From Squalus acanthias (Eukaryota): a DNA stretch of 64,000 bases. Where the stretch lies: positions 67,208,001-67,272,000 of the forward strand of contig CM059440.1 in assembly GCA_030390025.1 (NCBI GenBank), read 5' to 3'. Made by a program: the position numbers and the translations under genes. The notes under the pieces are model-generated. The model did not search any database. It had not been told where the DNA came from and saw only the letters and a list, made by a program, of their open reading frames with translations. Shown piece after piece: positions 14,577 to 43,088 of this stretch. Positions within the stretch are counted from its first letter, which is position 1, and the number at the start of each line of letters is the position of its first letter.

Positions 14577-16919
14577 CAGGAAACTCTCGTTTAAACGGCA
14601 CCTAAATATCCGGAATTCTCTAATAACTGGCAAAATTCATACTCCGAAAACAACACCTCAATAACCGGAAATGTTGCCGAGTCCGAGTCCAAGTCTCCCG
14701 CAGTGGCCGAGTTAGTCAGTGGGGGTAGTTCTTCAAAGTGCCACTACTCTGCTTCCTGGCGCTGTCGGAAGTCCGAACACCTCAATAACAGGAGTCTGAC
14801 TCTCCCGTGCTGCCGGTAGTCTCTTCCGATCTGCCATTTTTCTGTGTGTCTCTCCATCTTTATCATGAATTATCTCCCCCATCTTGCATTATGGAATTCC
14901 CAAAAGTTGGTCAAAGCAAAAGGAAGAGAGTGGTGTTAACTTTAAAACAGAAAATCAAGATATTTCAAAGACTAGAAAGGGGGGAGAAGCGTATCAACAT
15001 TATGAATGAATTCAAAATCGGTTCGGCAACAATCTACGACATCAAACCACAGAAGGATAAGCTGCTCAAGTTTTATTCAAGCTCGGAGACATCTAAGAGT
15101 GTAGAGAAACGGCGTACGCTTCGTAAGCCTAAGCTTGAAGAGCTGGATACCGTGCTTTATGAGTGGTTTTCTCTTAAGCGTTCAGCGGGTGTTCCACTTT
15201 CCGGACCCATGCTAATCGAGAAAGCGAAGGATTTCTACGAAAGGATGGAGCTCACTGACAAGTGTGCTTTCTCCGATGGATGGCTAACGTGCTTCAAGTT
15301 ACGGCACGGGATACGACGACTCGATATTTCCGGGGAGAAGAAATCAGCTGATCACGACGCCGCAGAAGAATACTGCGATTATTTCAATCGGATTGTGCAG
15401 CAACATGATTTGTCGCCAGCACAGATATATAATGCCGATGAAACTGGCTTGTTTTGGAGGTTTTTTCCAGAATCAACGCTTGCTGGGGCTAGTGAGGCTA
15501 ATGCTTCAGGTTACAAGAAAAATAAAGATCGTGTAACCGTGCTAACATGTGCGAACGCTGCTGGATCACACCGGGTTAAACTTCTTGTTATTGGGAAGTA
15601 TAAAAATCCCCGTGCATTTAAAAATGTGAGGCACTTACCTGTTGAGTACAAAGATCAAAAAAATGCTTGGATGCATAAGGAAATCTTTTTGTATTGGTTC
15701 CATCATATTTTTGTTCCATCTGTGAGGGAACATTTCTGTAAAATAGGGAAACCTGAAGATAGCAAATGCATTTTATTGCTTGATAATTGTAGAGCCCATC
15801 CGCATGAATCCGAGTTGGTTTCGGGAAATATTTTCACCATTTATTTGCCACCAAATGTAACTTCTCTCATACAACCCATGGACCAGGGCATTATCCAAAA
15901 TCTCAAGTGTCATTACAAGAAAGACTTCCTACGCAAACTGATAAACCAAGATGACAATATTCACGCATTTCAGAAGGAATACAATCTTAAAGATGCCATC
16001 TTTAGTGTTGCATGTTCCTGGAACTTGGTGAAAGGTCACACTTTGAGACAAGCCTGGCGCAAATTGTGGCCTTCTGTAATGTTTACTGAAGGTTCTTCTT
16101 CAGAGGAGGAATTTCATGTGTTCAATGTTCGTCCCAAGAAGAGTACAATAATGGAAATGGCTGGCATGGTGAAAAATGTAGGCCCAGCAAACCCTCTACG
16201 TCACCTCAGTGAAAGTGATATTGAGCAGTGGGTTGATGCAGATAGAGAAGTTGGTGTTGTGCATATGCTAAGTGATGATGAAATAATTGAGACTGTTTTG
16301 AATCCAGAGAAAGAAAAGGAAAGTGAGATGGAAAGTGAAGAGGATGAGATTTCTGAAGAGAAGAAGATTTCTTGGGCTAAAGCTGCAGAAGGATTTGCTT
16401 CAATCCTCCAATTTGCTGAAAGGCAGCCTTGCTACTCTGCCCAAGAAGTTATGCAACTCCATATTTTGCATTCCACCTTTCTACAGAAAAGGCAAGAGTC
16501 CACTAAGCAAGCAGACATCCGGGACACGTTTAAGAAAGCTTCCAAAAGAGTCGAAGCAGTGGAAGTGACTGAAGAATCTATTGAAGTGCATGATCCTGAT
16601 GAACCAGTTGACTTGGAATAAGTGTACAGTCAACTACAGTACTGTATACAGTCGATTATAAGTTTTGTTTTACTGTTAAGTAATTAAAGAGTTATGGATT
16701 ACCCTCAACTGGCATTACTGTACTTAATCAAGCATCTTCCACCATCCATTTAACACAACATTCTGTCGGGGAGTACCCAATTATACTGCACATTTCTTGA
16801 TTTTTTTATTTTTGTTTGTTAAAAATAGCCTCGGTAGATATACCTCTCCGTTATCCGGAATTTTTAATCAACCGGCACCATCCCGGTCCCGTCGGTGCCG
16901 GATACGAAAGAGTTTCCTG
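14577..16919 (+). mobile_element. Full-length Tigger/pogo (Tc1-mariner superfamily) DNA transposon
   Basis: TIRs CAGGAAACTCT...GGCACC at both ends (imperfect internally); TA duplicated at 14575-76 and 16920-21. Confidence 0.95.
14891..16621 (+). CDS. Tigger/Jerky-like transposase (CENP-B-type HTH plus DDE_1), 576 aa
   Basis: ATG at 14891; [12 protein letters not shown]; WF...SGPMLIEKA; catalytic motifs [29 protein letters not shown]; uninterrupted ORF. Confidence 0.93.
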
Positions 16920-17515: not shown

Positions 17516-18946
17516 TCAAGCTATTATATAAATGCAAGTTCTTTCTTTCTCTTGATTTCTCAAGTGGAACATCTGTCAAAGTAAAAGTTGAATGTACAGC
17601 AACATTTCTTGTTGCTGCTGGAAGTGCAGAGGGAATGGTCCTCTGTAGCTGACTAAAGTCCTTCAACTTCCCCAGAATGTTTTGCATTTTTTTTTTGACA
17701 CTCACTTTGTTATACACATGAACAGTTTTACTATTATTTACAGTAAGAATGTTCTGTCCTTAAGACACTTTCTTTCTCTGCAATACGATGGAGGGTGTCC
17801 TCAGTGTGAAGACGGGACTTCGTCTCCACAAAGGAAGATGGTTGTGGTGGTTGGAGCTCAATCATCACAGCTGCAGGACATCGCTGCAGGAGTTCGTCAG
17901 GGCAGTGTCCTTGGCCCAACCATCTTCAGCTGCTTCATCAATGACCTTCCCTCCAACATAAGGTCAGAAGTGGGGATGTTCGCTGACGACTGCACAATGT
18001 TCAGTGCCATTCGCAACTACTCAGATAATGAAGCAGTCCATGCCCACATGCAGCAAGACCAGGACGACATTCAGACTTGGGCTGATAAGTAGCAGGTAAC
18101 ATTCGTGCCCCACAAGTGCCAGGCAACGACTATCTCCAAAAAGCGAGCGTCTAACCACCGCCCCTTGACATTCAACGGCATTACCATCGCCGAATCCCCC
18201 ACCATCAATATCCTGGGGGGGTAAACATTGACCAGAAACTTAACTGGACTAGCCACATAAATACTGTGGCAACAAGAGCAGGTTAGAGGCTCGGTATTCT
18301 GCGGCGAGTGACTCACCTCCTGACTCCTGTGGAAGTGTATTTTCTTACTTGGACACAAAATGACTTCCTAGACACAGAATAAGAGATACAAAATGGCCGA
18401 CTCTGACTTGCCTGGGAAAAGATAGTAGTTGTTTATGACTTCTCATGGTGATGAATTTAAACTTTGCAGACTATGCTGTTTTTGCAGCAACTGGTACAGA
18501 ACAAAGAGTCTTCTTCTAATCAACTTGAGATAACCAAGGACTAGTGAAGTAAACATTTAGCCTTTGATTCCAGATGGCATGGTGGGAGGAGAACAAGCAT
18601 CCTCCGTGAGAAGAGATTAGCTAGCCTTATCTCAAGGTATTCCTGCTCCTTTAACCTTTCTGACCTTTTAGAAAGTCCTCCTTAAACATACACATACTCC
18701 TTTTTAACTTGTTTTTGTAGGCGCTATGCTTTTAATCAACTGTGATTTAATACCATGTCATGTGATACAGAAAGCTTGTATTTTCAGTGTATAAAGATGT
18801 TGCATTTTCTGTGATTCTTCAGAGTGTCAAGTAGCCTTTGACTACATGCATTCTCCTTGCGAGCAAGTAAATAATAAAGCCTGTCTTTGACGATACTTTA
18901 TGTTTCAAGAGTCTTACTCGGGAGTCGAAACTTCGACAGTATTTCT

Positions 18947-18964
18947 TGGAGGTTCCACCGAGAT
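18947..18964 (+). promoter_or_regulatory. ERV primer-binding site, tRNA-Gln
   Basis: TGGAGGTTCCACCGAGAT is the reverse complement of the vertebrate tRNA-Gln 3' end (...ATCTCGGTGGAACCTCCA). Confidence 0.85.
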
Positions 18965-19700
18965 CGCTTGCTACCTTTCGGTAAGTCACGGACAAAGGAC
19001 ACCACGAATTCCTAGTGACAAATCCTGAATGGCCACAGTGATGTTTTATCACATAAAAAGGATTTCTCATTAGATACTGAATTGGTGTAGTGTGTTTCTT
19101 CCGACGGGAGTACTGCGATCAGTCAAGATTCACATTTTAGATTTGAGTTGAATCCTGTAACTTTTGTTTCTTTTAATTTTAACGTTAAAAGGAGGAGGAT
19201 ACTGACGGCTCAAGTCTCAAAACTATCGGGCAAAGGAGGCAAAGGAAAAAGTCGGCAGGGTTGCGTCCCGGACTGATAAAAGTACCAGGTTGTGAGAAAG
19301 CGTTTAAAGGTTAAAACTGCAGTATCAAGGGTGGGTCCCTTGAGCCGGAGAAAAGAGTCTTGCGGCAGAAAGGTTTAGATAAGAAACCTTCGTATAGAGT
19401 ATAAGTTGAATGTGAATAGAGTATAAGTTAAATGTTAAGGACTCAGTCTGTTGTGGAGTACAACGCAAACTGAGAATTGACTATTTGTTTAGTTTAAAGT
19501 ATAAGGTTAAATGTTTGATTACTTGATTTGTTTGCCTGTTTGGGCTTTTGCATTCGTTATCATTGTCTTGATTGTTGTTAGTTCTTGTTATTGTTCATCA
19601 CTTGTGGTACTTTGGACGGTCAAACATAATCGTAAGGGGGTAAAGGGTAAAACTTGCGATTTAGAAGAAGAGTGCCTAGTATAATTAAAACCTTACTAAG

Positions 19701-20210
19701 ATGGGAGTTTCGCAGAGCAAGATCCCAGAAAATGGAACTCCAGCTTTTTACATCTTCCAGAACTGTGGTCGGATGTCCACAAGGGATTTGTCTGATTGGT
19801 CTAAATGGACCAAGAATGACAAACACCCGTTCCCCATTGATGGAACCTTTAACCTAGACAGAATTACATGTCTAGAGGACTGTCTCACAAATAGAGACCC
19901 ACAAAGAAAAGGTAAAAAGTCAGTAAATTGGTCAGCCTTTTCAGACTGGAAAAAGGAAGCAGAAAGGCGTAAGGACCGTAGTATACAAGCCAGTAGATCT
20001 GACGTTAAAAATAAGAGAAAAGACCCAGTGAGTAAATTGGCTAAACAAGATGAAGTCAGACAAATGGCTTTAAGACAAACCAAAGATAAAGAAGGAAAAA
20101 GATCTAATTTACCGACATTGAAATCTGAAACTCAGCAAAGAAAAAAAAAGGATTTGGAAAGCCAGGAAAAGCTGCTGAGACGCTTATGTAAAAAAAAGAG
20201 AGAAATTTAA
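19701..20210 (+). pseudogene. gag: ERV gag N-terminus (matrix), truncated
   Basis: MGVSQS myristoylation motif; W..WT...FP.DGTF matrix-like motif of gamma/epsilon retroviruses; no capsid or nucleocapsid follows. Confidence 0.75.
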
Positions 20211-20722
20211 AGTTTTATCGACATGGAAGTTATTAATGTCTGTGTCGAGACAAATAAACACAAGATTTCTTGAGTGAAAGGAATCTTAAAAGGAATGCTG
20301 GGATCTCAGTTTGAGTGAAAGTGTGTGTTAAAAGTATGAAAGTTTTCTTGACTGTGAATGTTTAAGAAGTTACAGTATTTATTTTGTCTGAAAGTCTGTC
20401 TTTAAAAAAAGTGTCTGTCATTTTTGTTTTAGCTTCACCCACTCTTTTGTACAGAGAGCTAAAAGCTGTTTAACCCTTTGAAGACTTGTCTTGAATGATA
20501 GTCAAGCGTGTGTTGTTTTAAGTTTGTTAATTGTTTTACAAAAGATAAGCTTCAGCCTTGAAGTCACAGTTGCCAATGTGCCTGGAAGAAAATGAATTTG
20601 AATGTTTACAAGGCATGGGTAATTGTTTCTTTGTTAATGTGACTATGGTTTTTTTCTTTTCCAAGTGATACTGGTTAGTTTAAAAAAAAATTGATCTGGA
20701 TTGAATTGGAGTTATTGAGGTT

Positions 20723-21153
20723 AACATAGAAACATAGAATCTAGGAGCAGGAGTAGGCCATTCGGCCCGTCGAGCCTGCTCCACCATTCAATACGATCAT
20801 GGCTGATCATCCAAATCCAGTACCCTGTCCCTGCCCCAATCCCCACAGTACACATATCCCACCCCACCCCCGTAACCCCACGCATTTAATTCCCCCTAAC
20901 ATATCCCATCCTATCCCCATAACCCCACATATTTAATACCCCCCTAACACTAAGGGTCAATTTATCATAGCCAAATCAACCTAACCCACACATTTTTGGA
21001 CTGTGGGAGGAAACCGGAGCACCCGGAGGAAACCCACGCAGACACGGGGAGAATGTGCAAACTCCACACAGACAGTCACCCGAGGTCAGATTCGAATCCG
21101 GGTCCCTGGCGCTGTGAGGCACCAGTGCTAACCACTATGCCACCGTGTTGCCC
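20723..21153 (-). mobile_element. HE1-like V-SINE inserted in the ERV
   Basis: On the minus strand: A box TGGCATAGTGG, B box GGATTCGAATC, V-domain-like core (gtgtggagtttgcacattctccccgtgtctgcgtgggtttcctcc), and a CR1-derived tail with (ttctatg) repeats. Confidence 0.85.
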
Positions 21154-21334
21154 GTTAATTAACCTATTAAAACCAGACTTTTATTGTGCACGGTGAAATT
21201 CTGGTTGGTGTAAATTTGTGTAGATTACATTGAATAAGATATTTAATGGTCTGAAACCAGACTTTAAAATATTTACAGTTTTGGATACAGAACGGGTTCT
21301 GATCCATACCATTGGCAGAGGAATCACAAGGGAA

Positions 21335-21725
21335 ATTCACCTTTTCTGTCAGGGATAGACAGTATACATGAACCAGGGTCCCGCAGGGGTTCCACAATAG
21401 TCCAAATATATTCCACCTTGTACTGAGTCAAGCCTTAGACGAGTTAGACCTATCAAATTATTGCTAGCCACCCTCCAGACACTTAAGAAAGCTGGCTTTA
21501 AATTGAACCCAAAAAGGTACAGGTTGGACTGTCCAAAGTAAAGTATCTAGGACACGAAATTAACCAGGGGTATAAGGCACTCCTGCAGAAACAAAGGCAG
21601 CCATAAAAGACATGCCAAGGCCAGTGACCATCTGGGGAGTGAGGAAAGTGTTGGGACTATTTAACTACTGCAGGAATTTTTATATCAGACTTTGCAGGGA
21701 AAGCAGAGCCGATTCAACGGTTAGT
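21335..21725 (+). pseudogene. pol: Retroviral RT fragments
   Basis: FTFSVRDRQYT*TRVPQGFHNSPNIFH; GFKLNPKK; VKYLGHEI; GVRKVLGLFNYCRNF, with deletions and frameshifts. Confidence 0.8.
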
Positions 21726-22559
21726 TAAAGAGGGATCCAGTAGCGAAGGCAATGCCATGATGTGTGGCTACAATAGATTGTGCCCCAAGAATTGAAAAAA
21801 AAAACTTTGAACTACAATTTAAGTTAAGCTGGTGTGTAAAAACTGAGAAGAACAACAAAAAGTTTGTTTAACAAAAGATTAAGTTTCGGTCTAAGATTTA
21901 ACCTTGGAGTCGCAGTTGCTATGGTGAAATCTTCCAAAGCAGTTTGATTTGATTTGCTTAAGTGTGAAAAACTAATTTTTCTCCAGTTATAAGAAATATG
22001 ATGTGATTTATGGTTTTCTACAAGCATGTACTAGTTTGTTTTGTTTTATTTGTTCTGTTCGTGTTCAGTTGAAGTGTGAAAACACAACTGTCTTTTTGGA
22101 TCGGGAAAGTTTTTTAATTTACGTAAAGTGACGCAATTGCGTGCGCCTGACAATGTTTCGCTCCACCTTCTTAAAGACCTGCAAAGGAGTTAACCCTGTC
22201 CACTGACAGCTGATTAAGTTCACCGAGCAACAACTTTAGTATGACATTTAAAGATATTGGACATTATTAAATTTAAGTTTCTTAATTTTAATTTAACATT
22301 TCCCAGAAGGAAAATTATGATTTGATAAATTAACCCCTTGGGCTTTAAGCAGAGTCACAATGGATTCTCTTCTTTCTTTTGTTATATGGAAGTTACCTTG
22401 TAAACTAATTGCAGCACTTCTGTCTCTAATGTTAAAACACTGTGTAAGCCACCTAGCCTGGAAATCACTTGTTTCTGAAATTGGAATTGATAAGATAAAT
22501 TGATAGAAATGAAATTGAACATTGACAAAACCTGTCAGTTCAACAGTACTGCTGTTTGG

Positions 22560-23711
22560 ATTTCGGGATAATTTTGAAATGACAAAATGGACTCAGGCTC
22601 TATATATTGAGATACCAGTATGGCCACTACCCAAGACATCAGAACCATGCGGTGGAAGATGAACAAAGACCTCCAGACAATTTTTTAATAAGATACCTGA
22701 AAGCCCGAGAAAGGCTTGTATCGGATGGCACGTGTGGCACGATATTGAGATACCGATATGAGTGTGCAAATGTGATTTGTTACGTATGAAGCAATTACCA
22801 TCTGGAAATGCATGGTGAATCTGCACTGAAGAACGGGTCTCAGTCTGCTCAGTTACTTGACAACAGCAAAACATGAAATGGTTAATGTGGCTCAGGAGAG
22901 CGAGATAACTTTTAAAGCATTGACACATTCTCCATCGAGAAACTATCTAATTAATGAAACAGAATAGAGTTAAACACACTGGTACCTGTTAGAGGGAGTG
23001 GAAATTGAAGTTGAAGTGGAGAGTTACCTGGAATTTGGATTGGGACAATTGAGGGCTAAGGAGAAATCATGTTTAGTAAGAATTATCCACAATATGGATA
23101 CGAGTAAAAGAGCGATCTGGAGAATCTTTTAAGTCCATGATTTGTTGATTAGATGTTAAACTGTAATGTTGCTTGAAATGATTGTAAGACTGAATTTAAC
23201 TGTGACTGTAATAATTGTGTTTTGTAGGTAACAGAGCGTGGGAAAAACCAGTGCGAATCCAGTATGAGGTGGTTTTGGTGGTGCCTGCTGTGTCACTACT
23301 ACCGCAACTACCATGCTTTACGGGTCTAACAGGACCTGTCCCATCAATCAACACGTTTTACATAATATCGAAACCTATGCTCAAGTGAAACTGACAGTAA
23401 ATGAGGTACTTAAGTATGAGCTGCACAATTATGTGGCACAATTCGGATACGACATTCCCCTGTTGTCTAAGGGTATCAGTGAGCTCATGATGCGACTGAA
23501 CTCCTCCCTAAAGCATTTTTATGTTTTGAAGGAAGACAACTCGGGAATAGATATTGAAATTGACAGCATAGAGGACAACTCACACTGGTGGGATATTGGG
23601 CTTAATACATCGGCACACCCTTACGTTCGTATTATTTCACACGCTCTGGTAGTTATCCAACTTGTAATGATAGTGTATTTGATATATGTAATGTGTGGAG
23701 TAAGACTTTGA
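22560..23711 (+). pseudogene. Remnant of a second, non-gamma-type envelope-like glycoprotein (heptad plus TM C-terminus)
   Basis: ORF 23313-23711 has N-glycosylation sites, a helical stretch, WWD and a C-terminal TM (IISHALVVIQLVMIVYLIYV); upstream fragments are Cys-containing. Identity is inferred. Confidence 0.5.
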
Positions 23712-24358
23712 TACACAAGCCAATTGGGTACTCATGCCCATGACTAACCAGCACTAACAAATTGAGCACACCGAAAGAGAAGATCCGAAGCAATGTAGAG
23801 GAGACCCCAGGCGGGGTAACATCAGGAAAGATAGAAGAAACAGAGGATACCCCAGGCGGGGCAGAATTGGAACACCGGAACAATGAATTGAATTTGAGTA
23901 AGGGGTCAGAGATTGCTCCTTCTCCTCAAAGGAATGGACTGATAACTAACGCCCAAATTGAGAGAGCAATAAGAACTAGCTAGATTAGTCAAGAGCCGAT
24001 TGTGAGAAGTCAATAAGGATATTTCCTTCTCAAAGAAGGGAATTGTAAGAAATAGCTGTTAGATTCAAAGATGGGTTTTAATTCTTAGAACAGAAACTGA
24101 CAACATGCAGCCTGGAACAGATAGCAGAAATGCCAGCAAGGTCGAATATCAAGCATCAAAAGACAAATAGAAGTGATAAGGGAATCGTAAAATGCAAAAC
24201 AGGCTCGAGGGGCTGATTGGCCTACTCCTGCTCCTATTTCTTATGTTCTAACACAGGGTGGGGGAATAATAGACAAAAATGGAGTCGAAAAGTCAAGGAA
24301 AGATCTACCTGGATCCACGCATCCCATTGCAAGAAAGCACCAAACAAGGACTTAAACA

Positions 24359-25735
24359 ATGAAGCTGTTACTTATATTTTGCATATTAATCGGACTGATA
24401 CGCATGACGTGCCAAAGAGGTGGGGAAGGATCCCGAAAGAAACGAGAATTACACGTTAACACTTTCTTGTACATGTCTTACGAGCATGCTAAAACTAGTG
24501 GTAGATCTAGTTGTTGGGTCTGTGCCCATATACCTATTCACACCACGGGAGGGATCCCCCTCAGATCAATTCCCTTTAATACTTCCGAAACAGCAGAATG
24601 GGTAATAAGAAGAAACAGTTCAAGGGACCCGGATAAGACCTCAGATGTAGAACAGTGGAGATCAGCAGGGTATAACCTAACCACCTTTCAGGGGTGGTAT
24701 CAGCCCAATTAGAATCATACTCGAACACCCCAGTTTCTTGTATTAACTAATACCTCAGGAGTCGGTAGACCACAAGGGGCATTATGTTTTAAAAAGCAGG
24801 CTGCAGTAAGCAGGATGCAGGATGAAAAGAAAGTCGGAGAGAGTTCCTGTAATCAAACAGTCATGTGGCAACCACCAATTCCTGGCCTGCTTGAGCAGGG
24901 ATTTTTTCAGTTTGACTGGACTAAAGTAAATAATAAAACCAGTAGGTCCCCCTGAACAGGCACCCCTATCCGAATATGGATGGGAGGAGAGGGTAACTTG
25001 ACGGCCTATTGCACCTATTTTATATGCGGGAACAAGGCTTATCCATGGTTGCCACATAACTGGACAGGGTCCTGCTATTTGGGTTATGTAGTACCTTATA
25101 TCCACATTTTAGACGAGATAGGAGAACATCATGAATTCCAAAGAAGTAAAAGAGAGATAGCAACTTATGAAAGAGTCTTTGGAGTATTAATAGCCCCATA
25201 CGGAATAGGGAAGTTAATGGGAGAAGTAAATGAGCTAGCAGATCTGATAGAAAAAGTGGCAAATTAAACTGAGGAAGGATTGTCCGAAATGAGTGCTGAA
25301 ATGGTAGTTATAAGAGTAATGACATTGTAGAATCGAATGGCATTAGATTATCTGTTGGCAAATAAAGGAGGAACTTGTGCTTTGATAGGGAGTGAATGTT
25401 GTACCTATATCCCAGACAGTTCAGAAAATATAACTAACATAGTTAAACACATAAGAGATGCAGTGAGTCAGTATAAGAATCCAAAGAGCCAAGGATGGTT
25501 TGACTGGATACTGGGAGGATGGCTGGGATCAATGGGACAAATATTATTGCATGGACTAGTAGTAGTGGTTGCAGTAATTCTGTTTGTCACAATGATTAAA
25601 TGCTGTTGTAATAGGCTAGGTAAGGCAGTTATACCCGGAGGAAGTATGATGGTACAGAGGGAAGTAAATGAAGAAGAGGAGAAGAACAGTCCCCTAGGGG
25701 AAGAGCTAAGGCGATTGGGTAAGATAAATTTTTAA
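24359..25735 (+). pseudogene. env: Gamma-type retroviral env (SU-TM), disrupted
   Basis: Signal peptide, CWVC (CXXC), CGNKAY..LP.NWTGSC, furin site RSKR, ISD L*NRMALDYLLA, CX6CC (TCALIGSECC), TM; stops at ~24710 and ~25328 plus frameshifts. Preceded by an integrase C-terminal motif WIHASHCKKA (~24310-24340). Confidence 0.92.
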
Positions 25736-27015
25736 GGATTAGATGACCAAGATGATGCCAGTTACAGTGGCCAAAATTAAAACTGGACAAATTAGAATTG
25801 AAAGAATTACATGCCCAACCCTAAGGATAGACAGAAAGGAGAGACGATCTTAAATAAGGTCAGCCATCAATACAGGTATAATCCCGAGGATGGTTAAAAC
25901 AGAAAAGAAGTTGGCATCCCTGGCCAAAATTCAAATTTGGTACAGGAACCGACAGGAGAGACCAAAAGGGTTAAATTGAGCTATTTTGTCCTAGAAGGAC
26001 AAAAAGGGGGGAATGTGGAAGTGTATTTTCTTACTTGGACACAAAATGGCTTCCTAGACACAGAATAAGAGATACAAAATGGCCGACTCTGACTTGCCTG
26101 GGAAAAGATAGTAGTTGTTTATGACTTCTCATGGTGATGAATTTAAACTTTGCAGACTATGCTGTTTTTGCAGCAACTGGTACAGAACAAAGAGTCTTCT
26201 TCTAATCAACTTGAGATAACCAAGGACTAGTGAAGTAAACATTTAGCCTTTGATTCCGGATGGCATGGTGGGAGGAGAACAAGCTTCCTCCGTGAGAAGA
26301 GATTAGCTAGCCTTATCTCAAGGTATTCCTGCTCCTTTAACCTTTCTGACCTTTTAGAAAGTCCTCCTTAAACATACACATACTCCTTTTTAACTTGTTT
26401 TTGTAGGCGCTATGCTTTTAATCAACTGTGATTTAATACCATGTCATGTGATATAGAAAGCTTGTATTTTCAGTGTATAAAGATGTTGTATTTTCTGTGA
26501 TTCTTCAGAGTGTCAAGTAGCCTTTGACTACATGCATTCTCCTTGTGAGCAAGTAAATAATAAAGCCTGTCTTTGACGATACTTTATGTTTCAAGAGTCT
26601 TACTCAGGAGTCGAAACTTTGACACTCCTCAAAGCCTTTCCACCATCTACAAGGCACAAGTCAGGAGTGTGATGGAATACTCTCCACTTGCCTGGATGAG
26701 TGCAGCTCCAACAACACTCAAGAAGCTCGACACCATCCAGGACAAAGCAGCCCGCTTGATTGGCACCCCATCCACCACCTTAAACATTCACTCCCTCCAC
26801 CAGCGACGCCAACATCTAATGAACGAATAAAAAAAAATAACTTGTTGGAAGTTTGCGTTCTGGGCATCAAGTGAGGACAGTATCAGACTAGGCTGTGGAG
26901 CCTCCCATTGTCAAATACCCGGTCAACATTCATTCTCTGGGCTCACACATGTAGAATGACCACTTGGTCAAATTCCTGTTTATTAATGTATATTCATTCA
27001 CATAATAATTACCAT

Positions 27016-27912: not shown

Positions 27913-30518
27913 GAAAGTTGTAAATAATTTTCAAGGAACTAGATGTGAAGTTCTGCATTTGCTTTTTGCTCCTCTTCAATATTTATACAGAATTACACTT
28001 AGGGATCTGTTCATATTGTTAGCTTTTTAACTGGCAGCTTTAAAATCAGTTTCTTTCATTTACAACCAAACAATCCAGGAAGTGGATGGTCCAGTGGGTT
28101 AGCACAGGGTGTGAATTATGGCTCATGGAGTGTGTGGAACCCCAATTACTGAGTCACAGAGCCCCGTCGCCACAACAGACGGGTCAAGCTTTACATTCAA
28201 CAGCTTATGGTCAAGCAGGAAGTTTCACCACAATTGTAGGAAAAAGGATACAGACACAAGTTTTAAATAATATAAAATCAGGATTCCTGCAGGCACGCAG
28301 GTCCCTTTAATATGCTTCTTACTTTAAGAGAGGCCTTTTTCATCTCCCTCCAAGACAAAGCTGGCAATCGTATAAACAGGCACCGTGGTTAAAATTAGAG
28401 GCACCGTCAGGCGAGGAACAGAACGTAGATGAGAAATAGGAGTGAGCCAAGGATAGATCGTTGAGGGACACCAGAGGGAACGGTGATTCTCTGGCTAGGA
28501 CTGGATCGATAATAATGGAAATACAAAAGCAAATTACTGCAGATGCTGGAAATCTGAAATAAAAACAGAAAATGCTGGAAATACTCAGCAGGTCAGGCAG
28601 CATCTGTGGAGAGAGAAACAGCGTTAACGTTTCAGGTCGATGATCCTTCGTCAGAACTGGGATAGATAATAATGGAACCAGGCGACCAATGTTCCACGCA
28701 AGGTGCGCGGCCGTGCAGCGATCTGTAAGGTCCCGCGCAGTCAAAGACACAGGCTGTGAGCTGGAGAGCTGGAGCTAGGGGAGGGGCCCAATACCCAACG
28801 GCCAAAGCGCGAGCAGGAAAAAGTCAGAGATGAGAGAATGTCCCGGGAATCCTCACAGGGAGAGTCGTTTGTGACCTTACAAAGCCGATCCGAATTGGAA
28901 CGGCGTTTGCTAAGATCTGGAGCCCTGGAACCCTTCGAGCGTTGTCTCGGGATTCTGTCGGTACTTTTTCGTGGAGACGCGTGTCGTCGTTTCCTGGGGA
29001 TTGAGCGGGGGCGGCACTTTGGAACAACACACCGCGGGAGCCAGTTATTAATCGGAACAAGTTGAGGAAAAAGCTTCCGCGGTAACCAGGGCGACAGGTG
29101 TCATTTCACCAAACCGCTCCGAGACCTCAATGTGTGCGGCTGGCAGGAAAGTGAATGCAGTTTTATTTTTATTATCTTACATTTGGAATATATTTTTGAG
29201 GTTAACTTTTTGGAAGAAAAAAAAATGATCACATATTTAACGCCCGTATATTTATTTAATGTAAATGTTTATTTTTGAGTAAACAAACGTTAACGTCCCA
29301 AAGGCGTTTTATTTAAAACGTCACTCGGGTTTTAAAGCCTTAAAAATGTCCAACGTTTTTGAAACTGAAGCCAAGAGGAAGACGACGACGTGTTGCAGCT
29401 TTGCGATAGGTGCACTATTGACAAACGGATCGCCCCTCGATATTTCAGAACTTTCCTGATCTCTAGATAGTGAGTGTCTTGGTGAGCCTCTTCAGGCAAA
29501 CTGTTTCTTAATGCTTCATGTTTCAATTCACGCGGTGTAATGCAGACAAAGGTGAGCTGTGGATGTGTAACCCAAGAAGACGGTCCTGAAATGGAAATGT
29601 TCCGCTTTTTAATCTTAAATTAGGCCGCAGTTCTACAAGCGCTTTTGCTCCTGTGGAAAGTGGTTTTTGGTGCACTTCAATGAAAAAGTGGTGGTATAAC
29701 CTAAGAGAGATAATTGAAGGTACTAAAGGCGTGAGTAATGAGTCTGGTACGGGTTTATGTTCGCACTGAGTGCACATTAACTCCAGCTTTAGTTTCTCAC
29801 CACCTCCCAACAAATGTTGGAAACAAAGTTATTGCTAATGTCTGATGTAATAATAAGAAAACTTAACAGAACAAGTCATTTGGTTCATCAAGTGTTTGCC
29901 TTCCACCAACAATATCCAGTCTATTTGTTTTTGGGATGAGATGTTAAATCTGCTCCTGTGGTTCAGATGGACTAATAACGGACAGCTAGCACAGATTTGT
30001 TAAAGGCAAATCGTGTCTGACTAACCTGATTGAGTTCTTTGATGAAGTACCAGCGAGGGTTGATGAAGGTAGTGTCGTAGATGTATATATGGACTTTAAA
30101 AAGACATTTGATGAAGTACCACATAACAGACTTATTGGGAAAATAGAAGCAAATGGTATTAAAAGGACAGTGGTAACTTGGGTGCATAATTGGCTACGGG
30201 ATAGGACGCAGAGAGTAGTGGTGAACGGATGTTTTTCTGACTGGAGAGAAGTATGCAGTGGGGTCCCCCAGGGGTTGGTATTGGGACCATTGCTTTACTT
30301 GTTACATATAAATTACCGACACAGACCTCAAGTATCTACAGAGATGCAAGAAAGCAGACAAGATCCCGAAAGGATTACAGATCACGAACCCACTCAAGTC
30401 GACATACAACACAGACTACGCTGAGAGACTCTGCCGTCATACCTCTCGCACACTCCTCAACCATCTCGTAGACCAGCTCTACAGCAAACGCCGCAACCTC
30501 GAAACCAAGATAGAGTCC

Positions 30519-32927
30519 ATGCTCTCAGCCTATGCTCAGGACACAGCAGACCAGCTACGAGACACCGCCAAACAGACGAGGCAACGGAACTACGCTGCCT
30601 ACATGCGCATCAAGAACAGGAAGCTTGAGAAACTCGGCATCACCACCAGCAGCAACCAAGCCTCCCCCGGTACCACGGTTGCAACCACAGGGAAGTCCAT
30701 CGTCAACTTGTCCGACCACACCCTTCAACCAGACGAAATCGAAGTTCTCAACCGAGGGCTCATTTTCTGCCCCACCACCAAAATGGACCCCATCGGTCTC
30801 GCGGCAGACACAGAGGAATTCATCAGGAGAATGAGGATCCGGGAATTCTTCCACGAATCCCAAGATGTCAGCAGCGAACCCAATGAGACAATCAATGATC
30901 CGGAACAGCAGACAGAGGGACTCGCAGTGCAGCAACCAAAGAAGAAAGAGTCAAATTGGACCCCTCCGGAGGGTCGTTGCCCTAAGCTTGACATGTATGC
31001 TCAAGCTGTCAGGAGATGCATCAATGCCAGATTCATCAGCCGCACTCACAAGACAGTCCAGAATGTCACCCGAGCACAACGCAACGCCATCCACGCTCTC
31101 AAGACCAACCGCAACATCGTCATCAAACCAGCGGACAAAGGAGGAGCCATCATCATACAGAACAGAATGGACTATTGCAAAGAAGCATACCGACAACTGG
31201 ACAACCTGGAACACTACAGACAGTTACCCGCAGATCCGACCAAAGAACACACCCGCCAACTCAATAGACTGATCAAGACCTTCGATCCAGACCTTCAAAG
31301 CATCCTACGCGCTCTCATCCCACGTACTCCCCGCGTGGGAGACTTCTACTGCCTCCCAAAGATACACAAAGCCAACACACCCGGACGTCCTATCGTATCA
31401 GGCAACGGAACCCTGTGTGAGAACCTCTCTGGATACGTCGAGGGCATCCTGAAACCCATCGTACAGGGAACCCGCAGCTTCTGTCACGACACCACAGACT
31501 TCTTACAGAAACTCAGCACCCATGGACCAGTTGAACCAGGAACACTCCTCGCCACGATGGACGTATCGGCACTCTACAACAGTATCCCCCACGATGACGG
31601 CATCGCTGCGACAGCCTCAGTACTCAACACCAACAACAGCCAATCTCCAGACGCCATCCTACAACTCATTCACTTCATCCTTGACCACAATGTCTTCACC
31701 TTCGACAACCAGTTTTTTATCCAAACACACGGAACAGCCATGGGGGCCAAATTCGCACCCCAATACGCCAACATCTTCATGCACAAGTTCGAGCAAGACT
31801 TCTTCGCTGCACAGGACCTCCAACCAACGCTGTACACCAGATACATCTACGACATTTTCTTCCTTTGGACCCAAAGCAAAGGATCACTGAAAAGACTATA
31901 CGATAACATCAACAAGTTCCATCCCACCATCAAACTCACCATGGACTACTCCTCAGAATCGGTTTCATTCTTGGACACACGAATCTCCATCAAAGACGGA
32001 CACCTCAGCACTTCACTCTACCGCAAGCCCACGGACAACCTCACGATGCTCCACTTCTCCAGCTTCCACCCTAACCACGTTAAAGAAGCCATCCCCTATG
32101 GACAAGCCCTGCGAATACACAGGATCTGCTCAGACGAGGAGGAACGCGATGGACACCTACGGACGCTGAAAGACGCCCTCGTAAGAACAGGATATGACGC
32201 TCGACTCATCGATCGACAGTTCCGACGGGCCACAGCGAAAAATCGCATAGACCTCCTCAGAAGACAAACACGGGACACAACCAACAGGGTACCCTACGTC
32301 GTCCAGTACTTCCCCGGAGCAGAGAAACTACGCCATGTTCTTCGCAGCCTTCAACATGTCATCGATGACAACGAACACCTCGCTAAGGCCATCCCCACGC
32401 CTCCACTACTCGCCTTCAAACAGCCGCCTAACCTCAAAAGTACCATCGTTCGCAGCAAATTACCCAGCTTTCAGGAGAACAGCGACCACGACACCACACA
32501 ACCCTGCCACGGCAACCTCTGCAAGACATGCCAGATCATCAACACAGATACCATCATCACACGTGAGGACACTACCCACCAGGTATATGGTACACACTCA
32601 TGTGACTCGGCCAACGTTGTCTACCTCATATGTTGCAGGAAAGGATGCACCGGAGCATGGTACATCAGCGAGACCATGCAGACACTGAGACAACGTATGA
32701 ACGGACACCGCGCAACAATCGCCAGGCAGGATTGTTACCTCCCAGTCGGGGAACACTTCAGCAGTCAAGGACATTCGGCCTCGGATCTGCGGGTAAGCGT
32801 TCTCCAAGGCGGCCTTCGAGACACACGACAACGCAAAATCGTCGAGCAGAAACTGATAGCCAAGTTCCGCACCCATGAGGACGGCCTCAACCGGGATCTT
32901 GGGTTCATGTCACGCTACATGACGTAG
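30519..32927 (+). CDS. Penelope RT-GIY-YIG endonuclease ORF (probably inactive)
   Basis: IKPADKGG, LPKIHK, RPIVS, MDVSALY, GTAMG; catalytic YIDD reads YIYD; GIY-YIG reads VVYLI...WYISET...R.R..H. Confidence 0.9.
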   Translation: MLSAYAQDTADQLRDTAKQTRQRNYAAYMRIKNRKLEKLGITTSSNQASPGTTVATTGKSIVNLSDHTLQPDEIEVLNRGLIFCPTTKMDPIGLAADTEEFIRRMRIREFFHESQDVSSEPNETINDPEQQTEGLAVQQPKKKESNWTPPEGRCPKLDMYAQAVRRCINARFISRTHKTVQNVTRAQRNAIHALKTNRNIVIKPADKGGAIIIQNRMDYCKEAYRQLDNLEHYRQLPADPTKEHTRQLNRLIKTFDPDLQSILRALIPRTPRVGDFYCLPKIHKANTPGRPIVSGNGTLCENLSGYVEGILKPIVQGTRSFCHDTTDFLQKLSTHGPVEPGTLLATMDVSALYNSIPHDDGIAATASVLNTNNSQSPDAILQLIHFILDHNVFTFDNQFFIQTHGTAMGAKFAPQYANIFMHKFEQDFFAAQDLQPTLYTRYIYDIFFLWTQSKGSLKRLYDNINKFHPTIKLTMDYSSESVSFLDTRISIKDGHLSTSLYRKPTDNLTMLHFSSFHPNHVKEAIPYGQALRIHRICSDEEERDGHLRTLKDALVRTGYDARLIDRQFRRATAKNRIDLLRRQTRDTTNRVPYVVQYFPGAEKLRHVLRSLQHVIDDNEHLAKAIPTPPLLAFKQPPNLKSTIVRSKLPSFQENSDHDTTQPCHGNLCKTCQIINTDTIITREDTTHQVYGTHSCDSANVVYLICCRKGCTGAWYISETMQTLRQRMNGHRATIARQDCYLPVGEHFSSQGHSASDLRVSVLQGGLRDTRQRKIVEQKLIAKFRTHEDGLNRDLGFMSRYMT

Positions 32928-35996: not shown

Positions 35997-36687
35997 TTGT
36001 GAGAAGTCGCACAACACCAGGTTATAGTCCAACAGCTTTATTAGAAATCACAAGCTTTCGGAGCGCTGCTCCTTCATCAGGTGAAGTGAAGAGATGCATA
36101 TAGGCACAGCATATATAGTCAGAGAACACTGCCAGATGATTACAGTTAATCTTTCTAACTGCCCTTTATCACACCTCAGCAGAGAGATAATCCCGGCAAT
36201 CAAAGGTGTGGATGATGTCCAAACAGGTCAGTCAGGAAAACATTACATCAAAGATAATGAGGTGGGGCCACAAGGGGTCACATGTGGCAGATGCTGGGGT
36301 CTGTATAGAAAACAAAAGACTTTTTTTGCTGGAAATCACAGCAGGTCCGGCCGCATCTGTGTAGAGAGAACAAGCCAACGACGACTCGAGTCTGGATGAC
36401 TCTACATCAGGTGGGGTTACATGTAGCATGACATGAACCCAAGGTCCCGGTTGAGGCCATCCTCATGGGTGCGGAACTTGGCTATCAGTTTCTGCTCGAC
36501 GATTTTGCGTTGTCGTGTGTCTCGAAGGCCGCCTTGGAGAACGCTTACCCGAAGATCGGAGGCTGAATGTCCTTGACTGCTGAAGTGTTCCCCGACTGGG
36601 AGGTAACACTCCAGCCTGGCGATTGTTGCGCGGTGTCCGTTCATACGTTGTCGCAGTGTCTGCATGGTCTCGCCAATGTACCATGCT
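35997..36687 (-). mobile_element. Penelope 3' fragment, inverted (left cap of the 18-kb insertion)
   Basis: Reverse complement encodes the GIY-YIG C-terminus (WYIGETMQTLRQRMNGHR...) and 3' UTR of the 30318-33351 family; hammerhead motif at 36048-36084. Confidence 0.93.
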
Positions 36688-39107
36688 GCGAAGAATATCA
36701 TGGTCACCTGGCAACGCGTCGACACTAAAGAGGTTGTCCACAGTTATTATTATGGAGAGGACCAGCTCAGCAAGCAGAATTCTCAATATTCAGGCAGAAC
36801 AAGTCTATTCCCAGAGGAGTTTAAAAATGGAAATGCTTCACTGAAATTAGAAGGAGTAAGACCAAACGACACTGGACTATAGCAGTGTTATGTCAGTAAT
36901 ACAATTGGAAATGATAAAGGAACAGTTTCTGTCAGATTTGCAGGTAAATATACTGAACATATTTCTCTTTTCTTAGTTCCCCATCTTACCTGAAGATGCT
37001 GACTCCTGCTACGGTATTGTAGCCTGGAATACATCCTCTCTCTTTATTCCTAGTGAATGATTAACAGGCCATGTACTGTAAACTTCTTAACGTTAAGTGT
37101 TAATAAGCACAGTGAAGAATGGAGCTAATAGAGCCCATTATATAACCTAGAGCTATTGGAACATTTCTCAAATTACCTTTCTCTAAACTGATTGGATTAA
37201 AAGTTGGAGGAGTTTCACTATATTGGAAAATTTAGTTTTATGATGCCTTAAAATAGCACTAGAGGCTGATTTACGTGGACCCCTCTCTCCAGGTCGAGCT
37301 TCGTCTGGATATGGTCCGGTCACAGCCCTAGCACTCCTTACAGGGCCCTAATGTCAGCAAATGTTAGTTGGAGAAGAGCAGCCAGAATGGCAGAAGATCT
37401 GGTGGGTCACTGTTTTAAAAAAAAACTTCCAGCTACCTTTTGGTTTCTCTTCGCTTTGCTGCCCGGTCCCCTCAGGCCCCCCGACCCGAGTGGGTCCCAA
37501 ACTCGAGGCCCACCATCAGCTTCTTAGACCTGCGCCTATTGCAAGCACTGGCCCTACTCCACCCCTCGGAGCAAGCCCAGGAAATCCCAGGACAGTCTAA
37601 AGGAGGTGGATGCCTGGCATAACTGGTCTTTGCTCCATTTTCCTGACCTTTGTTCCCAGGGAATAGGCGTTCCCTGGGGTAAAGGCCAAGATAATCTGCC
37701 TATGATGTAATGAGATTGCGATCAAATCATTTTTTCATAGAACATAGAACATAGAACATAGAACAGTACAGCACAGTACAGGCCCTTCGGCCCTCGATGT
37801 TGTGCCGAGCATTGTCCGAGACCAAGATCAAGCTATCACACTCCCTATCACTCTGGTGTGCTCCATGTGCTTATCCATCTGAGGATGCTCAACCTGTGCA
37901 GAACTCGAACGTCAAGTACACACTTGACCTCTAACTCTTCTGTGCTGCACTCCTTGTACTCAAAACAAATAAGTGACTGGTAACCAAGAACTTTATAATC
38001 ATTATATTAGGCCGTGCATTGTTCTGCAATATAGCTCAAGCATATACCAAAGGTATATGGCACTGTATCATTTATTACTGAAGAGGCAAGACTGAAAGAT
38101 TGTTTTAATTTCACAGCATACTACAATGAGCCAGTGCTGTTGATCAAACAGAAACTGTCCAGCACCATTTTAACATTTGAGTCCCGAGGCTTTCCTAAGG
38201 CTGATGTTTCTTGGTACAACGGAGACAATCTACATGATTCCCTTTTGTCCAAATGTTTATACCAGCAAACTGCTGATGGTCTGTACATAGTCGAAAGCAC
38301 TATGGAAATCATTGTCACAGAAAGAAGTTCAAACTATACATTCGTGTTAAGAAATGCTGCTGTCAATCAAACTATCTCGAGGACACTTAGTTTTCTTATT
38401 CCAGGTAAGATTTTGCTTTTTTTTCTCACCAATTTTCTTCCTCTCCTTCTCTCTTGAAGGTACCAGGCCACTCTCACACTCAGGTGGGTTATTATTTATG
38501 TGGGAACATTAATAGTGGGTTTTACCAGGCGGATCATCAATGGTGCATCAGAGCTGCACCTGATCCTATCCTCACCTTCGTCCACAAAGGTGCAGTTTCA
38601 GAATGGGTCACTGATAACCCTAGGGCATTAAGACCAATTGTCACATCCATACTGCTGTCCCAGCTGTTATCAGCTAACTCAGCATATATTGAAGGTGGGA
38701 CTGCATGACTCCGCTACTCACTGGAGAGACTCACTGAGCCACTGGAGGACCTAGACTTTTCATTTTAATAATAATAACTGAGTCATCTATTTATTATTTT
38801 AGAAAATGAATCTTTACAAAACAAATTCAATTCACACAATTTTCATCGCTAGCACATTTAAGTTGAGTATTCAGTAATTTGCTCATCACTTTAGTCTCTT
38901 CTACCCACCAGGAAGCCGCAGTAGCATCTGAATAGAACCTCCTTGTGATTTTTTTGAGCTGCTTCTATTTTTATGATTCTTTTTATTCAAGGAATAAAAG
39001 GTTTTTTTCCTCTTTTTTTTCTACTTCCAGAGAATTCAATCGGGAAGAAAGACCGTTCCTGCAATTATTATGCAGCCCTCATCAGTTGCATTCTGGGGAC
39101 TATACTC

Positions 39108-39140
<33 letters not shown>

Positions 39141-39218
39141 GCACTAACTGTGATGTTACATAAACACAGGTATATTAAACCAAAGAAAATGGAATACAAT
39201 AATCCAGGTCCACCATGA
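36686..39218 (+). pseudogene. Partial duplicate of B7-like paralog B (IgV 3' part 36686-36943, IgC 38117-38404, TM 39031-39218)
   Basis: Begins mid-IgV, fused to the Penelope fragment; shares the TAC>TAG stop (36880-82) with the copy at 54461. Confidence 0.92.
37739..37877 (-). mobile_element. Short CR1-type 3' tail inserted after the duplication
   Basis: (catagaa)n tail; absent at the homologous sites ~2708 and ~55609. Confidence 0.85.
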
Positions 39219-39351
39219 GATCACCATGGATTCCAAAATATCCTGATGGTTGTAACCAATTCTCTGCTGGACTTGTATGGTGTTTGGAGTTACAAATGGA
39301 TGTGGTATGAATGCTCTTTGTTCCAATTAATGAGTCTGAATGGTCGGCACG

Positions 39352-40322
39352 TCGCACTTATTGACACTTCCATCTTGTCTGACACCTTCAATCTCAATGT
39401 CTCCTTCGGTTCCTTCTAGACCTCGCTCTAGTACTCAAATCTTAATACATGGGAAATTAAGTATAGCTTAGCATTAGCTTATGAGGCAAATAGCTTGGTG
39501 TTTAAATTAGTGTTTCCTTACAGCTAGAACAGTCATTAGCTTCAAGGTCTCCATTAACTGTTGAATAAAGAAAGTTTATAGGAAGCTAAAAACAAAGATA
39601 AGGGAACCTAAGCCTTGTCTCTGTTACAGCTAGAATAGTCATTAGTTCCAAGGTCTCTATTAACTGTTGAATAAAGAAAGTTGGTAGGAATCTAAAAACA
39701 AAGATAACCAAAGTTTCTGTCTAATTGGGATAGAGATAGGCACAATAGTGTACCATCATAATAATCCATTGTAAGGTTTTACGCCTCAAACATAATGATT
39801 CGGATGTGACTCCATATTGGCAACGGTACGTTTTATTGGTATACAGTCGAAATCAATACAACCGGCAAAGACTAATGTTAACTGATAGTAATTTACAGTT
39901 CCGAAGGATATTACCAAATTCGGTCACTGGAAAGTGTAGCGTGCGATGTCTCCGTTGTATCTTTAATCCGGTCCGGCAGTTGTCTTACAAGCAGAGAAGA
40001 GCATTAGGCTTTCGCCAGTATGGACCGCTCATTAATACCAGCGTACCAGAGAGACGTTAAGCCCTTTTGGCTAGCATAAATCCATCTCTACAGGTACCGT
40101 CGTCCTCCTCTCTATATCTGTACATCTCAGGTCAAACAGTCACCTTTTATCCTTCAAAGTTCTGATCATTTGATTAACAAAGTCCAATCGTGTCTGTCCA
40201 CGCCAGGTTCGCTTAACGAGCAAGTCGCACTTATTGACACTTCTATCTTGTCTGATACCTTCATTCTCAATGTCTCCTTCGGTTCCTTCTAGACCTCGCT
40301 CTAGTACTCAAATCTTAATACA
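39352..40322. mobile_element. LTR-like element with a 98-bp terminal direct repeat (39352-39449 = 40225-40322); duplicate at ~57082-58053
   Basis: TG..CA segment 39450-40322 with an internal ~105-bp tandem repeat; homology to the copy A 3' UTR ends abruptly at ~39347. Confidence 0.55.
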
Positions 40323-40889
40323 TTTCATAATCTCACACCATAGATAGTGTGTATGTATGCTTGTTGGCACAGTTAATTGAACAAAAGACATTGTACCTGG
40401 ACTTTAAAAAACTTGCCAAAGAAGAGCTTTTCAGATGGTTACCTGGGAACCAGATTGGACATACAGCTGCAAAATGGTATAATAAGTAAGACTCCCTTTT
40501 TCACACAGAAAAGCAGGCCAATTAGGAGTTGGGAGCAGATGAGATAAGGGACATGTTACACGCCATGAAGCTTAGTCTTTGGGCTAGGCTGGCTGTAATG
40601 GAAATGTACTGGAGGGGCATGACCACGTTAAATCAGGTGACGGAAGGGATCCAATCAAGGGAAAAGAGGCAGATTCAATTTCACTACAGGCACAGAATTG
40701 TATAAAAACAGACATTTTGTGTTTTAAAGTTTAGTACAATGTTAGGATGCATGTTTACATCTATTGTACTCTGTCTGCCAATCTACTCCGCAGTATTTTG
40801 CCTCAATATTGTAGCCTGTGTGCTCTGTCCTGCACTCCCTGGGAGTATGGCTCCCTGCTCAGAGCACAAGGTCATGGCATTAGTTGTTA

Positions 40890-42991: not shown

Positions 42992-43088
42992 CCCTGGACC
43001 CAAGACCCCTCTATACAATCCTACTGAAGTAAGATATTAAAAAATTGGACATAACAAGGGCAAGACGGGCATGACTCATTTGCAGAAA

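Follow-up and report, generated by a model that had tools for sequence, protein, structure and literature searches.

A mosaic endogenous retrovirus in the genome of Squalus acanthias, likely assembled from three families and keeping an F-type envelope remnant beside a gamma-type env

The provirus described here lies at positions 18328-26624 of a 64,000-nucleotide stretch of the Squalus acanthias genome (NCBI GenBank assembly GCA_030390025.1, contig CM059440.1, positions 67,208,001 to 67,272,000 of the forward strand), which is called the window below; all coordinates are those of the window, and the proviral parts are read on its forward strand. It is very probably one copy of a multi-copy, non-autonomous endogenous retrovirus (ERV) whose pieces come from three families of the same genome, named A, B and Y, and which was likely joined by template switching and likely copied in trans by family A. 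The parents A, B and Y exist, two-donor intermediates of the B-Y and B-Y-B types exist, and the junctions are common to independent insertions with target-site duplications (TSDs).

The element is bounded by one pair of long terminal repeats (LTRs) of the family A type with TG..CA ends, 611 nt long (5' LTR 18328-18938, 3' LTR 26014-26624). The two differ at 8 of 611 positions (1.31%), in agreement with the value of about 1.3% given in a first-pass annotation of the window. The host site is a long interspersed element (LINE), in which the TSD CTCC stands at 18324-18327 and again at 26625-26628. The primer-binding site (PBS, 18947-18964) is identical in sister mosaics and is presumably that of tRNA-Gln; the terminal polypurine tract (PPT) of family A is found at 26001-26013. 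By two rates from PMC4422223, neither of them measured in this host, the LTR divergence would correspond to about 3 or about 30 million years.

Family A loci were found with a protease query from a less deleted mosaic. Many of the 150 loci scored have a pol frame of 1190 codons, and 8 of the 12 fetched were of A type, with gag, pol and mostly a gamma-type env, two of them having identical LTRs. The coding set of the family consists of a 553-aa gag, a 1190-aa pol and the gamma env. Matches of A copies to the window are confined to 18328-20081 and to the part beginning at 24288, with 76-90% identity and nothing in between. The first of these parts holds the leader and the gag start (18965-20081, ATG at 19701), with 85-89% DNA identity to the autonomous copies L122, L126 and L127 and 79% amino acid identity to A gag 2-149, so that the gag start named in the annotation is present. 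The second opens with the last 21 codons of the integrase (24288-24351), which had been recognised as a class I tail; 24289-24351 is 95% identical to the C-terminus of A pol (residues 1169-1189). Behind it lies the gamma env (24359-25735), full-length and disrupted as had been stated, with a TLV_coat match (E 3.9e-7), 87.5% identity to the parent env and four in-frame stops. A CXXC motif in the surface subunit (CWVC in the window), a furin site, an immunosuppressive domain (ISD), a CX6CC motif and a transmembrane (TM) segment were found in the parent env and in the window frame. A pol scores 522 bits on the reverse transcriptase (RT) of murine leukaemia virus (MLV) against 177 on foamy RT, which makes it closest to the gamma/epsilon type. 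In a tree of 16 RT rows (nine from this genome and seven database proteins, with no named reference virus and no outgroup) it groups with Gag_p30-bearing ERVs of amphibians and reptiles, with support of 100/99. The RT motif of family A is PQGYTESP, which differs from that of the window. Among the family A copies L122-L127 there are intact-looking ones with identical LTRs, and several, namely L122, L123 and L124, have internal env deletions; L125 and L128 combine a diverged gamma env with a 90% identical RT. In the proviruses L128 and L129 a B-type piece (window 20108-20558) is inserted directly upstream of the gag start.

The origin of the middle was traced by a DNA search of the 3.7-Gb genome with window 22300-24200, in which 40 of 3453 candidates were scored and yielded 77 matches; ten-kb stretches were fetched around 20 of these. 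Family B proved to consist of separate non-autonomous elements of about 5 kb, whose LTRs (LTR-B, about 780 nt) begin with TGTAAG exactly at window 24044. TSDs of 4 bp were found in six of the seven LTR-B1 elements with printed ends. The PBS of the family starts with TGGTGTCAG and is presumably that of tRNA-Leu. Six B copies have LTR pair divergences of 2.2-3.2%, somewhat above most mosaics. B copies match the window at 20084-20443 and 21775-24295, and lack the RT remnant that lies between. The internal PPT (24032-24043), which precedes the 3' LTR in B elements, and the following TGTAAG (24032-24049 together) had been proposed to resemble a PPT with an LTR start, and they are a true one: the 28-nt junction of PPT and LTR-B gave 424 matches at no more than one mismatch, against 0 for a reversed control. 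The window keeps about the first 202 nt of LTR-B (24044-24295, U3), 98.7% identical to the B LTR and split by a 48-nt tail of a short interspersed element (SINE) at 24202-24249; the piece ends before the TATA-like (position 373) and AATAAA (position 711) motifs of LTR-B.

Further B-type material lies upstream. The decayed 5' internal region (20084-20724) matches B copies over 20084-20443, and its remainder is limited to chimeras and, in part, older B copies; a Pfam search of 20084-20724 gave no match. The B-type region continues at 21154-21238, up to the junction J2 from B to Y, in a form also present in the B-Y intermediates L108, L109, L111, L112, L115 and L116. The B middle region (21775-23176) showed no detectable protein homology. 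It is followed by a segment (23177-23271) that is placed after the integrase stop in B-related gag-pol elements and that has a putative splice-acceptor-like site near 23229. The envelope stub described below and its adjoining 3' region (window 23177-23910) were also observed in L076, L084, L090, L134-L142, L032 and L165, under at least five LTR types (LTR-B1, LTR-B2, L090-type, L134-type, LTR-A and LTR-C); two CCCAGGCGGGG repeats stand at 23806-23865 within this 3' region.

The RT palm, thumb and tether scraps at 21239-21775, internally deleted and frameshifted, carry the motif YT*TRVPQGFHNSP, as the annotation had read it. With blastn they matched none of the A or B-related pol loci. Family Y, found by a thumb query (open frames up to 703 codons, 84-93% identity), matches the window only at 21239-21735, with 78-96% DNA identity (L102-L107, L113), and its copies are without LTR-A, LTR-B or gamma env; a second figure obtained for Y copies over this stretch is 88-96%. 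The Y env is non-gamma, about 30% identical to an intact envelope of a further family X (E 2e-64) and 27-35% to the window stub. Since Y matches the RT, has an env only 27-35% identical to the stub and lacks LTR-A, the RT donor is neither the backbone nor the stub donor. The annotation had proposed that a class I ERV captured the pol-env-PPT segment of one second lineage; the foreign env, PPT and LTR stand, and the single donor does not, the RT being from Y and the stub from B.

Y pol scores 289 bits on MLV RT against 168 on foamy RT and has an MLV-like tether and RNase H; the tether of the fuller copy L032 matches only the RTs of MLV and xenotropic MLV-related virus (XMRV). An assignment of the window RT to class I from this MLV-like tether was rejected, as the parent Y is separate from the backbone A. 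In the 16-row tree the RT regions of the A, Y and B-related pols, 33-38% identical, fall in separate starred clades. Compared by eye with the RT of snakehead retrovirus (SnRV) as given in the supplement of PMC7947760, Y RT shares WPVGKPDGS, LDI(A/S)NGFWSI, PQGFH, LLQYVDDI and LGLFN(Y/F)CR. A viral_contigs search found no relative of Y pol and no SnRV record. The RT remnant is that of a third family, snakehead-retrovirus-like by motif. The Y copies L106 and L116 were seen to differ in the N-terminal half of env.

The same internal mosaic, with all pieces in sense and in proviral order, was found in several copies with different flanks. The exact junction J4, from LTR-B to the A integrase tail (24288-24295), is present in 12 loci and in none of the control. 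Four of these lie at 99.1-99.5 Mb of C1 and are apparently local duplicates, L154 and L155 having the same flanks. When other A-ended mosaic loci were examined, 14 of the 23 fetched stretches showed an LTR pair, with divergences of 0.56-3.09%; eight of the 14, together with the window, make nine different flanks with clean 4-bp TSDs. A tree of the env stub, built on 480 nt of stub and 3' region with 58 rows (L157, L130, L132, L150, L121, L162 and L071 left out for low coverage), places the 22 A-ended mosaics inside family B next to LTR-B1 copies, as a single group together with one B row. Three features are private to the window copy: a SINE (20725-21153, no strand assigned), which was inserted after integration and is absent from all 41 other loci covering both flanks; the SINE tail at 24202-24249, found in 0 of 42; and a deletion of about 350 nt at 22615/22621 in the B middle region, the longer form being kept in 51 of 54 loci.

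Among 105 ten-kb stretches there are four B5-Y chimeras, plus B5-Y-B chimeras. The same B-Y-B cassette occurs under a third LTR type, C (about 540 nt, PBS starting with TGGCGTAG), in L032, L121, L162 and L165; the gamma env of L165 is another one, with 66-75% identity to that of A. The junction J1 (20074-20081), at which A passes into the B-Y-B cassette, has an 8-nt microhomology between family A and the LTR-C chimeras L032 and L162, and J4 has an 8-nt overlap of which 7 of 8 nt are identical between the parents. Besides the entry from A to B in the matrix region there is a second one, in which the end of the A protease is joined to B. The exits from LTR-B lie at positions 142-335 in different copies, always before the TATA-like motif at 373 and the AATAAA at 711. 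Two entries and varied exits suggest repeated crossovers or later deletions. One of the 12 loci, L149 (C4:174.66 Mb), starts at the internal LTR-B TG directly in a LINE, runs through integrase tail and env, and ends in an LTR-A without its last 29 nt; about 50 nt of the LINE are missing and there is no TSD. Such a structure may represent a solo giant LTR whose synthesis was primed at the internal PPT, or a solo LTR-B may have been repaired on one side from a mosaic template. When the other exit type was searched for, none of 42 further matches started at the internal TG.

The pattern of decay differs along the element. All 12 stops in the frame 22623-23267 are common to most mosaic and B copies, 11 of the 12 in at least 87%. 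In the gamma env no lesion occurs in more than three of the copies examined, one full-length copy has none, and the four stops of the window are private save one that is common to one other copy. Because the breaks of the middle recur in all copies and most of those in the gamma env are confined to single copies, the master that spread is likely to have had an open gamma env. The middle decayed before the element integrated, the gamma env probably afterwards. That the element spread as a non-autonomous one and had decayed before integrating, as the annotation had supposed, fits these shared stops and the lack of its own gag-pol.

Nonsynonymous and synonymous changes (N:S) were counted in 16 of 24 loci, L155, L152 and loci of short coverage being left out. 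For the gamma env the counts were 107:42 among private (p 0.31) and 20:9 among shared changes (p 0.34), with an expected ratio of 2.83, which fits neutrality; the differences to the parent were 41:48, indicating purifying selection (p 2e-8). In the env stub the ratio of nonsynonymous to synonymous polymorphism (pN/pS) is 0.51-0.78, near the neutral value, and a stop or gap is present in 16 of the 19 mosaic copies examined; the window copy and many B copies have an open stub frame. A test for selection on either env while the element spread found none. The stub appears to be a passenger that gives no sign of function.

The stub itself, at 23274-23711, comprises the C-terminal 145 or so codons of an apparently F-type envelope, with a membrane-proximal helix, WW and a TM segment. 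The 147-codon frame 23268-23711 ends in WWD and a hydrophobic helix, and direct reading showed no ISD and no CX6CC. The stub gave no Pfam match and no protein match among the longer candidates. A relative was found in family X, a neighbouring provirus in the fetched loci L085 and L091 with a 783-codon open env frame, whose C-terminus is 34% identical to the stub (E 4e-21). A search with env X among 1.84 billion representatives returned 49 homologues; named members of this envelope family are from sharks, a skate and frogs, the closest being from cartilaginous fishes. The resulting 40-row env profile gives 108 bits on window 23274-23705, and elsewhere in 21775-24043, in the window and three B copies, nothing above 20 shuffled controls (best 1.6 bits). 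Pfam found nothing in any forward frame of the 21775-24043 region. No signal peptide, cleavage site, fusion peptide or heptad A was seen in the stub, and no homology upstream of 23274. Of the glycoprotein-like region that had been drawn up to 23711, the part at 23274-23711 is therefore envelope-derived, and 22300-23270 is without a profile or Pfam match. The stub is cut off identically in all B copies profiled. Since 23177-23271 adjoins the integrase stop in B-related gag-pol elements, the front of the env, about 600 codons, was lost before B spread.

The 40-row profile also matches foamy Env 8RM1 (E 0.0039); the env X sequence alone found nothing in the PDB. A single-sequence fold of env X was unusable (predicted local distance difference test, pLDDT, 34), and a model from the 40-row alignment reached a pLDDT of 62 and a predicted template modelling score (pTM) of 0.46. 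This model matches post-fusion F proteins of paramyxoviruses and respiratory syncytial virus, the best being human parainfluenza virus 3 F in Foldseek (E 1.5e-11, with a template modelling score by query of only 0.28). Among viral models it also matches the Env of walleye epidermal hyperplasia virus 1 (WEHV-1), walleye dermal sarcoma virus (WDSV) and feline foamy virus. The related env of L140 has a weak Fusion_gly match, below the cut-off (E 0.007). A structural comparison with class I fusion proteins had been suggested beforehand; its outcome holds for the homologue env X, to which the stub is linked by sequence only. Membership of the stub in an F-like or foamy-like envelope family is supported, the fold being modelled from intact homologues at about 30-34% identity. 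L140 and L134, with pols 91% identical in RT, have different F-type envelopes, that of L140 being about 30% identical to the stub. Family X (L085:3871-10000, L091; C3:136.03-136.04 Mb) has identical LTRs of 1686 nt, a coiled-coil gag and a 1494-codon pol besides its F-type env; all 150 scored of 7429 candidates were 100% identical over a 200-aa stretch, which points to a very recent burst.

The route by which these pieces were joined would be as follows. A decayed B RNA may have recombined with Y and then with B once more. Later, while reverse-transcribing an A RNA from the 3' end, RT would have moved from the integrase tail into the U3 of the cassette LTR-B, gone on through PPT-B, the stub and the RT remnants, and returned to the A template within gag, switching templates between co-packaged RNAs. 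The product kept both A LTRs, the PBS, the leader and the terminal PPT, so that A Gag-Pol could package, reverse-transcribe and integrate it. The internal LTR-B may have been tolerated because it ends before its own poly(A) signal, and the hybrid probably spread with an open gamma env, which was then disrupted separately in each copy. Complementation in trans is described as a standard route of ERV amplification (PMC10435555). As would be expected of a recombinant mobilised in trans, the mosaics have the same LTR at both ends and a TSD, they have lost a gag-pol of their own, the donors are in the same genome and a helper family is present. A screening criterion in PMC4724089 asks that no third, unrelated LTR lie inside such an element; here a 202-nt LTR-B stub does, and it is common to independent insertions.

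Several points weigh against this account. Among the loci examined no autonomous element combines LTR-B with a complete env-B; the fullest LTR-B copies, L081 and L144, end early in RT, and the gag-pol elements that share the stub carry another LTR and only about 57% amino acid identity in pol to LTR-B copies. For these two reasons the L134-type elements were rejected as a parent of B. The 1.4 kb or so at 21775-23176 can be traced to family B and no further. J2 shows no clear microhomology with the Y copies at hand, microhomology at J2 and J3 is little or none, and 21728-21790 gave no DNA match to L102 or L106. The direction between the LTR-C chimeras and the A mosaics at J1 is not fixed, and the mosaics need two changes on the env-stub tree, not one. 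Mosaic LTRs are only 76-87% identical to the fetched autonomous A copies, hence the exact helper subfamily is not among them. Co-packaging and template switching are deduced from the finished sequences, not observed.

Joining at the DNA level, by a B-Y-B provirus that inserted into or recombined ectopically with an A provirus, followed by deletions of its 5' LTR and most of its 3' LTR, by transcription of the composite from LTR-A and by copying in trans, is considered unlikely. Nested ERVs do occur in this genome, a gamma-env element lying inside the B copy L073, and microhomology also marks the deletions of DNA repair. However, each such origin needs two extra deletions, and there are two entries and several exits; moreover, the pieces all keep sense orientation and proviral order, and in none of the 105 ten-kb stretches do A ends enclose a 5' LTR-B or a complete 3' LTR-B. 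A one-off nested insertion after integration, confined to the window locus, would agree with the SINE, the SINE tail and the deletion of about 350 nt being private to this copy. With J4 common to 12 loci and nine insertions with different flanks and TSDs, that explanation is given next to no weight.

A further reading would have the element descend from a once-infectious virus with two working envelopes, a class I virus having captured a lokiretrovirus pol-env. Two env-derived regions do stand within one LTR pair, and the stub frame is open in the window and many B copies. On the other side, the stub is only the last 145 or so codons and is truncated alike in all B copies profiled, 16 of 19 mosaics have a stop or gap in it, its pN/pS is near neutral, gag-pol is mostly gone, RT and stub are from different donors and the RT motifs are not of the Loki type; a virus of this kind is judged highly improbable. 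A joining of the three families through RNA in the manner above is thus preferred. An extension of it, in which the internal PPT still works as a plus-strand primer and gives a 2.5-kb giant LTR (LTR-B start, gamma env, LTR-A end), L149 being a locus that begins at the internal TG, and in which the B 3' module, present under at least five LTR types, would be a portable cis-acting signal by which defective RNAs of distant clades come to share particles, is put forward as a doubtful though conceivable idea.

The lokiretrovirus question was followed further. The annotation had held the RT motif and the non-gamma env to fit lokiretrovirus-like or spuma-related elements; the published Loki RTs seen in the supplement of PMC7947760 read PFGY(S/A)NSP, and the RTs of the window, Y, X and the B-related elements carry, by eye, PQGFH like SnRV, so the lokiretrovirus assignment is not supported. 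It was on these supplement motifs that the X and B-related pols were dropped as lokiretroviruses. The B-related pol L134 scores about equally on foamy (230 bits), Ty3 (217) and MLV RT (215), and X pol behaves alike. The X and B-related pols share a tether motif with Loki records; X and Y pol match both RT_RNaseH and RNase_H, and a dual RNase H is common to all retroviruses. The envelope had been taken as a further Loki sign. Its homologue does fold like F, but so do walleye epsilonretrovirus and foamy Env, which also match. The evidence leans against Loki membership of the window RT and the B-related pols, the tree containing no reference RT. According to PMC7947760, a Loki screen of three chondrichthyan genomes gave no positives. 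Lokiretroviruses as described there by Wang and Han and in PMC9040795 resemble the elements here in the F-like env, the dual RNase H, the coiled-coil gag start (X and B-related, gag by eye) and the tether motif, and differ in the RT (PFGY against PQGFH) and in that the window RT comes from Y, not from the env donor.

Comparable mosaics are known. Harlequin, a defective mosaic human ERV present in many copies, is reported as LTR2-HERVE-MER57I-LTR8-MER4I-HERVI-HERVE-LTR2 (Vargiu et al. 2016, PMC4724089); as here, several donors are joined in one LTR pair with a foreign LTR inside, and the backbone env is often rather intact. Its origin is attributed in that report to co-packaging and polymerase jumps, and most such recombinants are said there to have arisen between related viruses, both of class I or both of class II. 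Here, by contrast, one donor belongs to class I and the other two are basal families, the RT identity being 33-38%, and an F-type env remnant is kept. In recKoRV1, a recombinant of koala retrovirus (KoRV) and PhER (Lober et al. 2018, PMC6112702), both ends (5' LTR, leader and gag start on one side, the 3' end on the other) likewise come from the younger virus and the middle from an older, degraded retroelement; microhomologies mark some breakpoints, independent breakpoints recur and spread is in trans with TSDs. As described, recKoRV1 keeps only the env end and has two donors, whereas the shark element has a full-length gamma env and three donors and is old (0.6-3% LTR divergence).

SnRV-related ERVs have been reported from a cartilaginous fish as CmiERV lineage I, clade Huo or class III (Han 2015, PMC4422223; Xu et al. 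2018, PMC6001957). Y is like SnRV in short RT motifs by eye and has an MLV-like tether and RNase H. Foamy Env has been grouped with paramyxovirus and pneumovirus F as subclass Ib fusion proteins (PMC11468914), and exogenous epsilonretroviruses are described as having a non-gamma Env (PMC9967133); those are full proteins, whereas the window keeps the C-terminal stub only. A literature search of incomplete coverage, judged by titles and the first lines of abstracts, found no description of this shark mosaic. The mechanism is known from Harlequin and recKoRV; this element differs in how distant its donors are, in having three of them and in keeping an F-type stub next to a gamma env.

The rest of the window holds further repeats. 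A 610-codon open frame at 14789-16621 presumably encodes a Tigger/pogo-like transposase. An 871-codon open frame at 30312-32927, which we assume to be a Penelope-type RT with a GIY-YIG end, is followed by inverted repeats up to 36690 and a 22-24-nt tandem array. A tandem duplication of about 17.7 kb, 97-100% identical, joins 36686-45641 and 54557-63367; part of a third copy lies at 1120-4236, and a long inverted repeat with arms of about 1.2 kb and 90-97% complementarity lies at 46358-49534.

No second envelope was functionally gained in the mosaic. If it arose as proposed, retroviruses of distant clades, with an RT identity of about one third and with gamma and F-type envelopes, would have swapped RNA repeatedly in one germ line, and the hybrids would have spread in trans. 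Classification by RT mislabels such loci, as the RT here comes from neither the LTR donor nor the stub donor. Exchange of this kind is the step needed for the swaps of envelopes between clades that are invoked in the literature, for instance for epsilonretroviruses, and that have rarely been shown with parents, intermediates and breakpoints in one genome.

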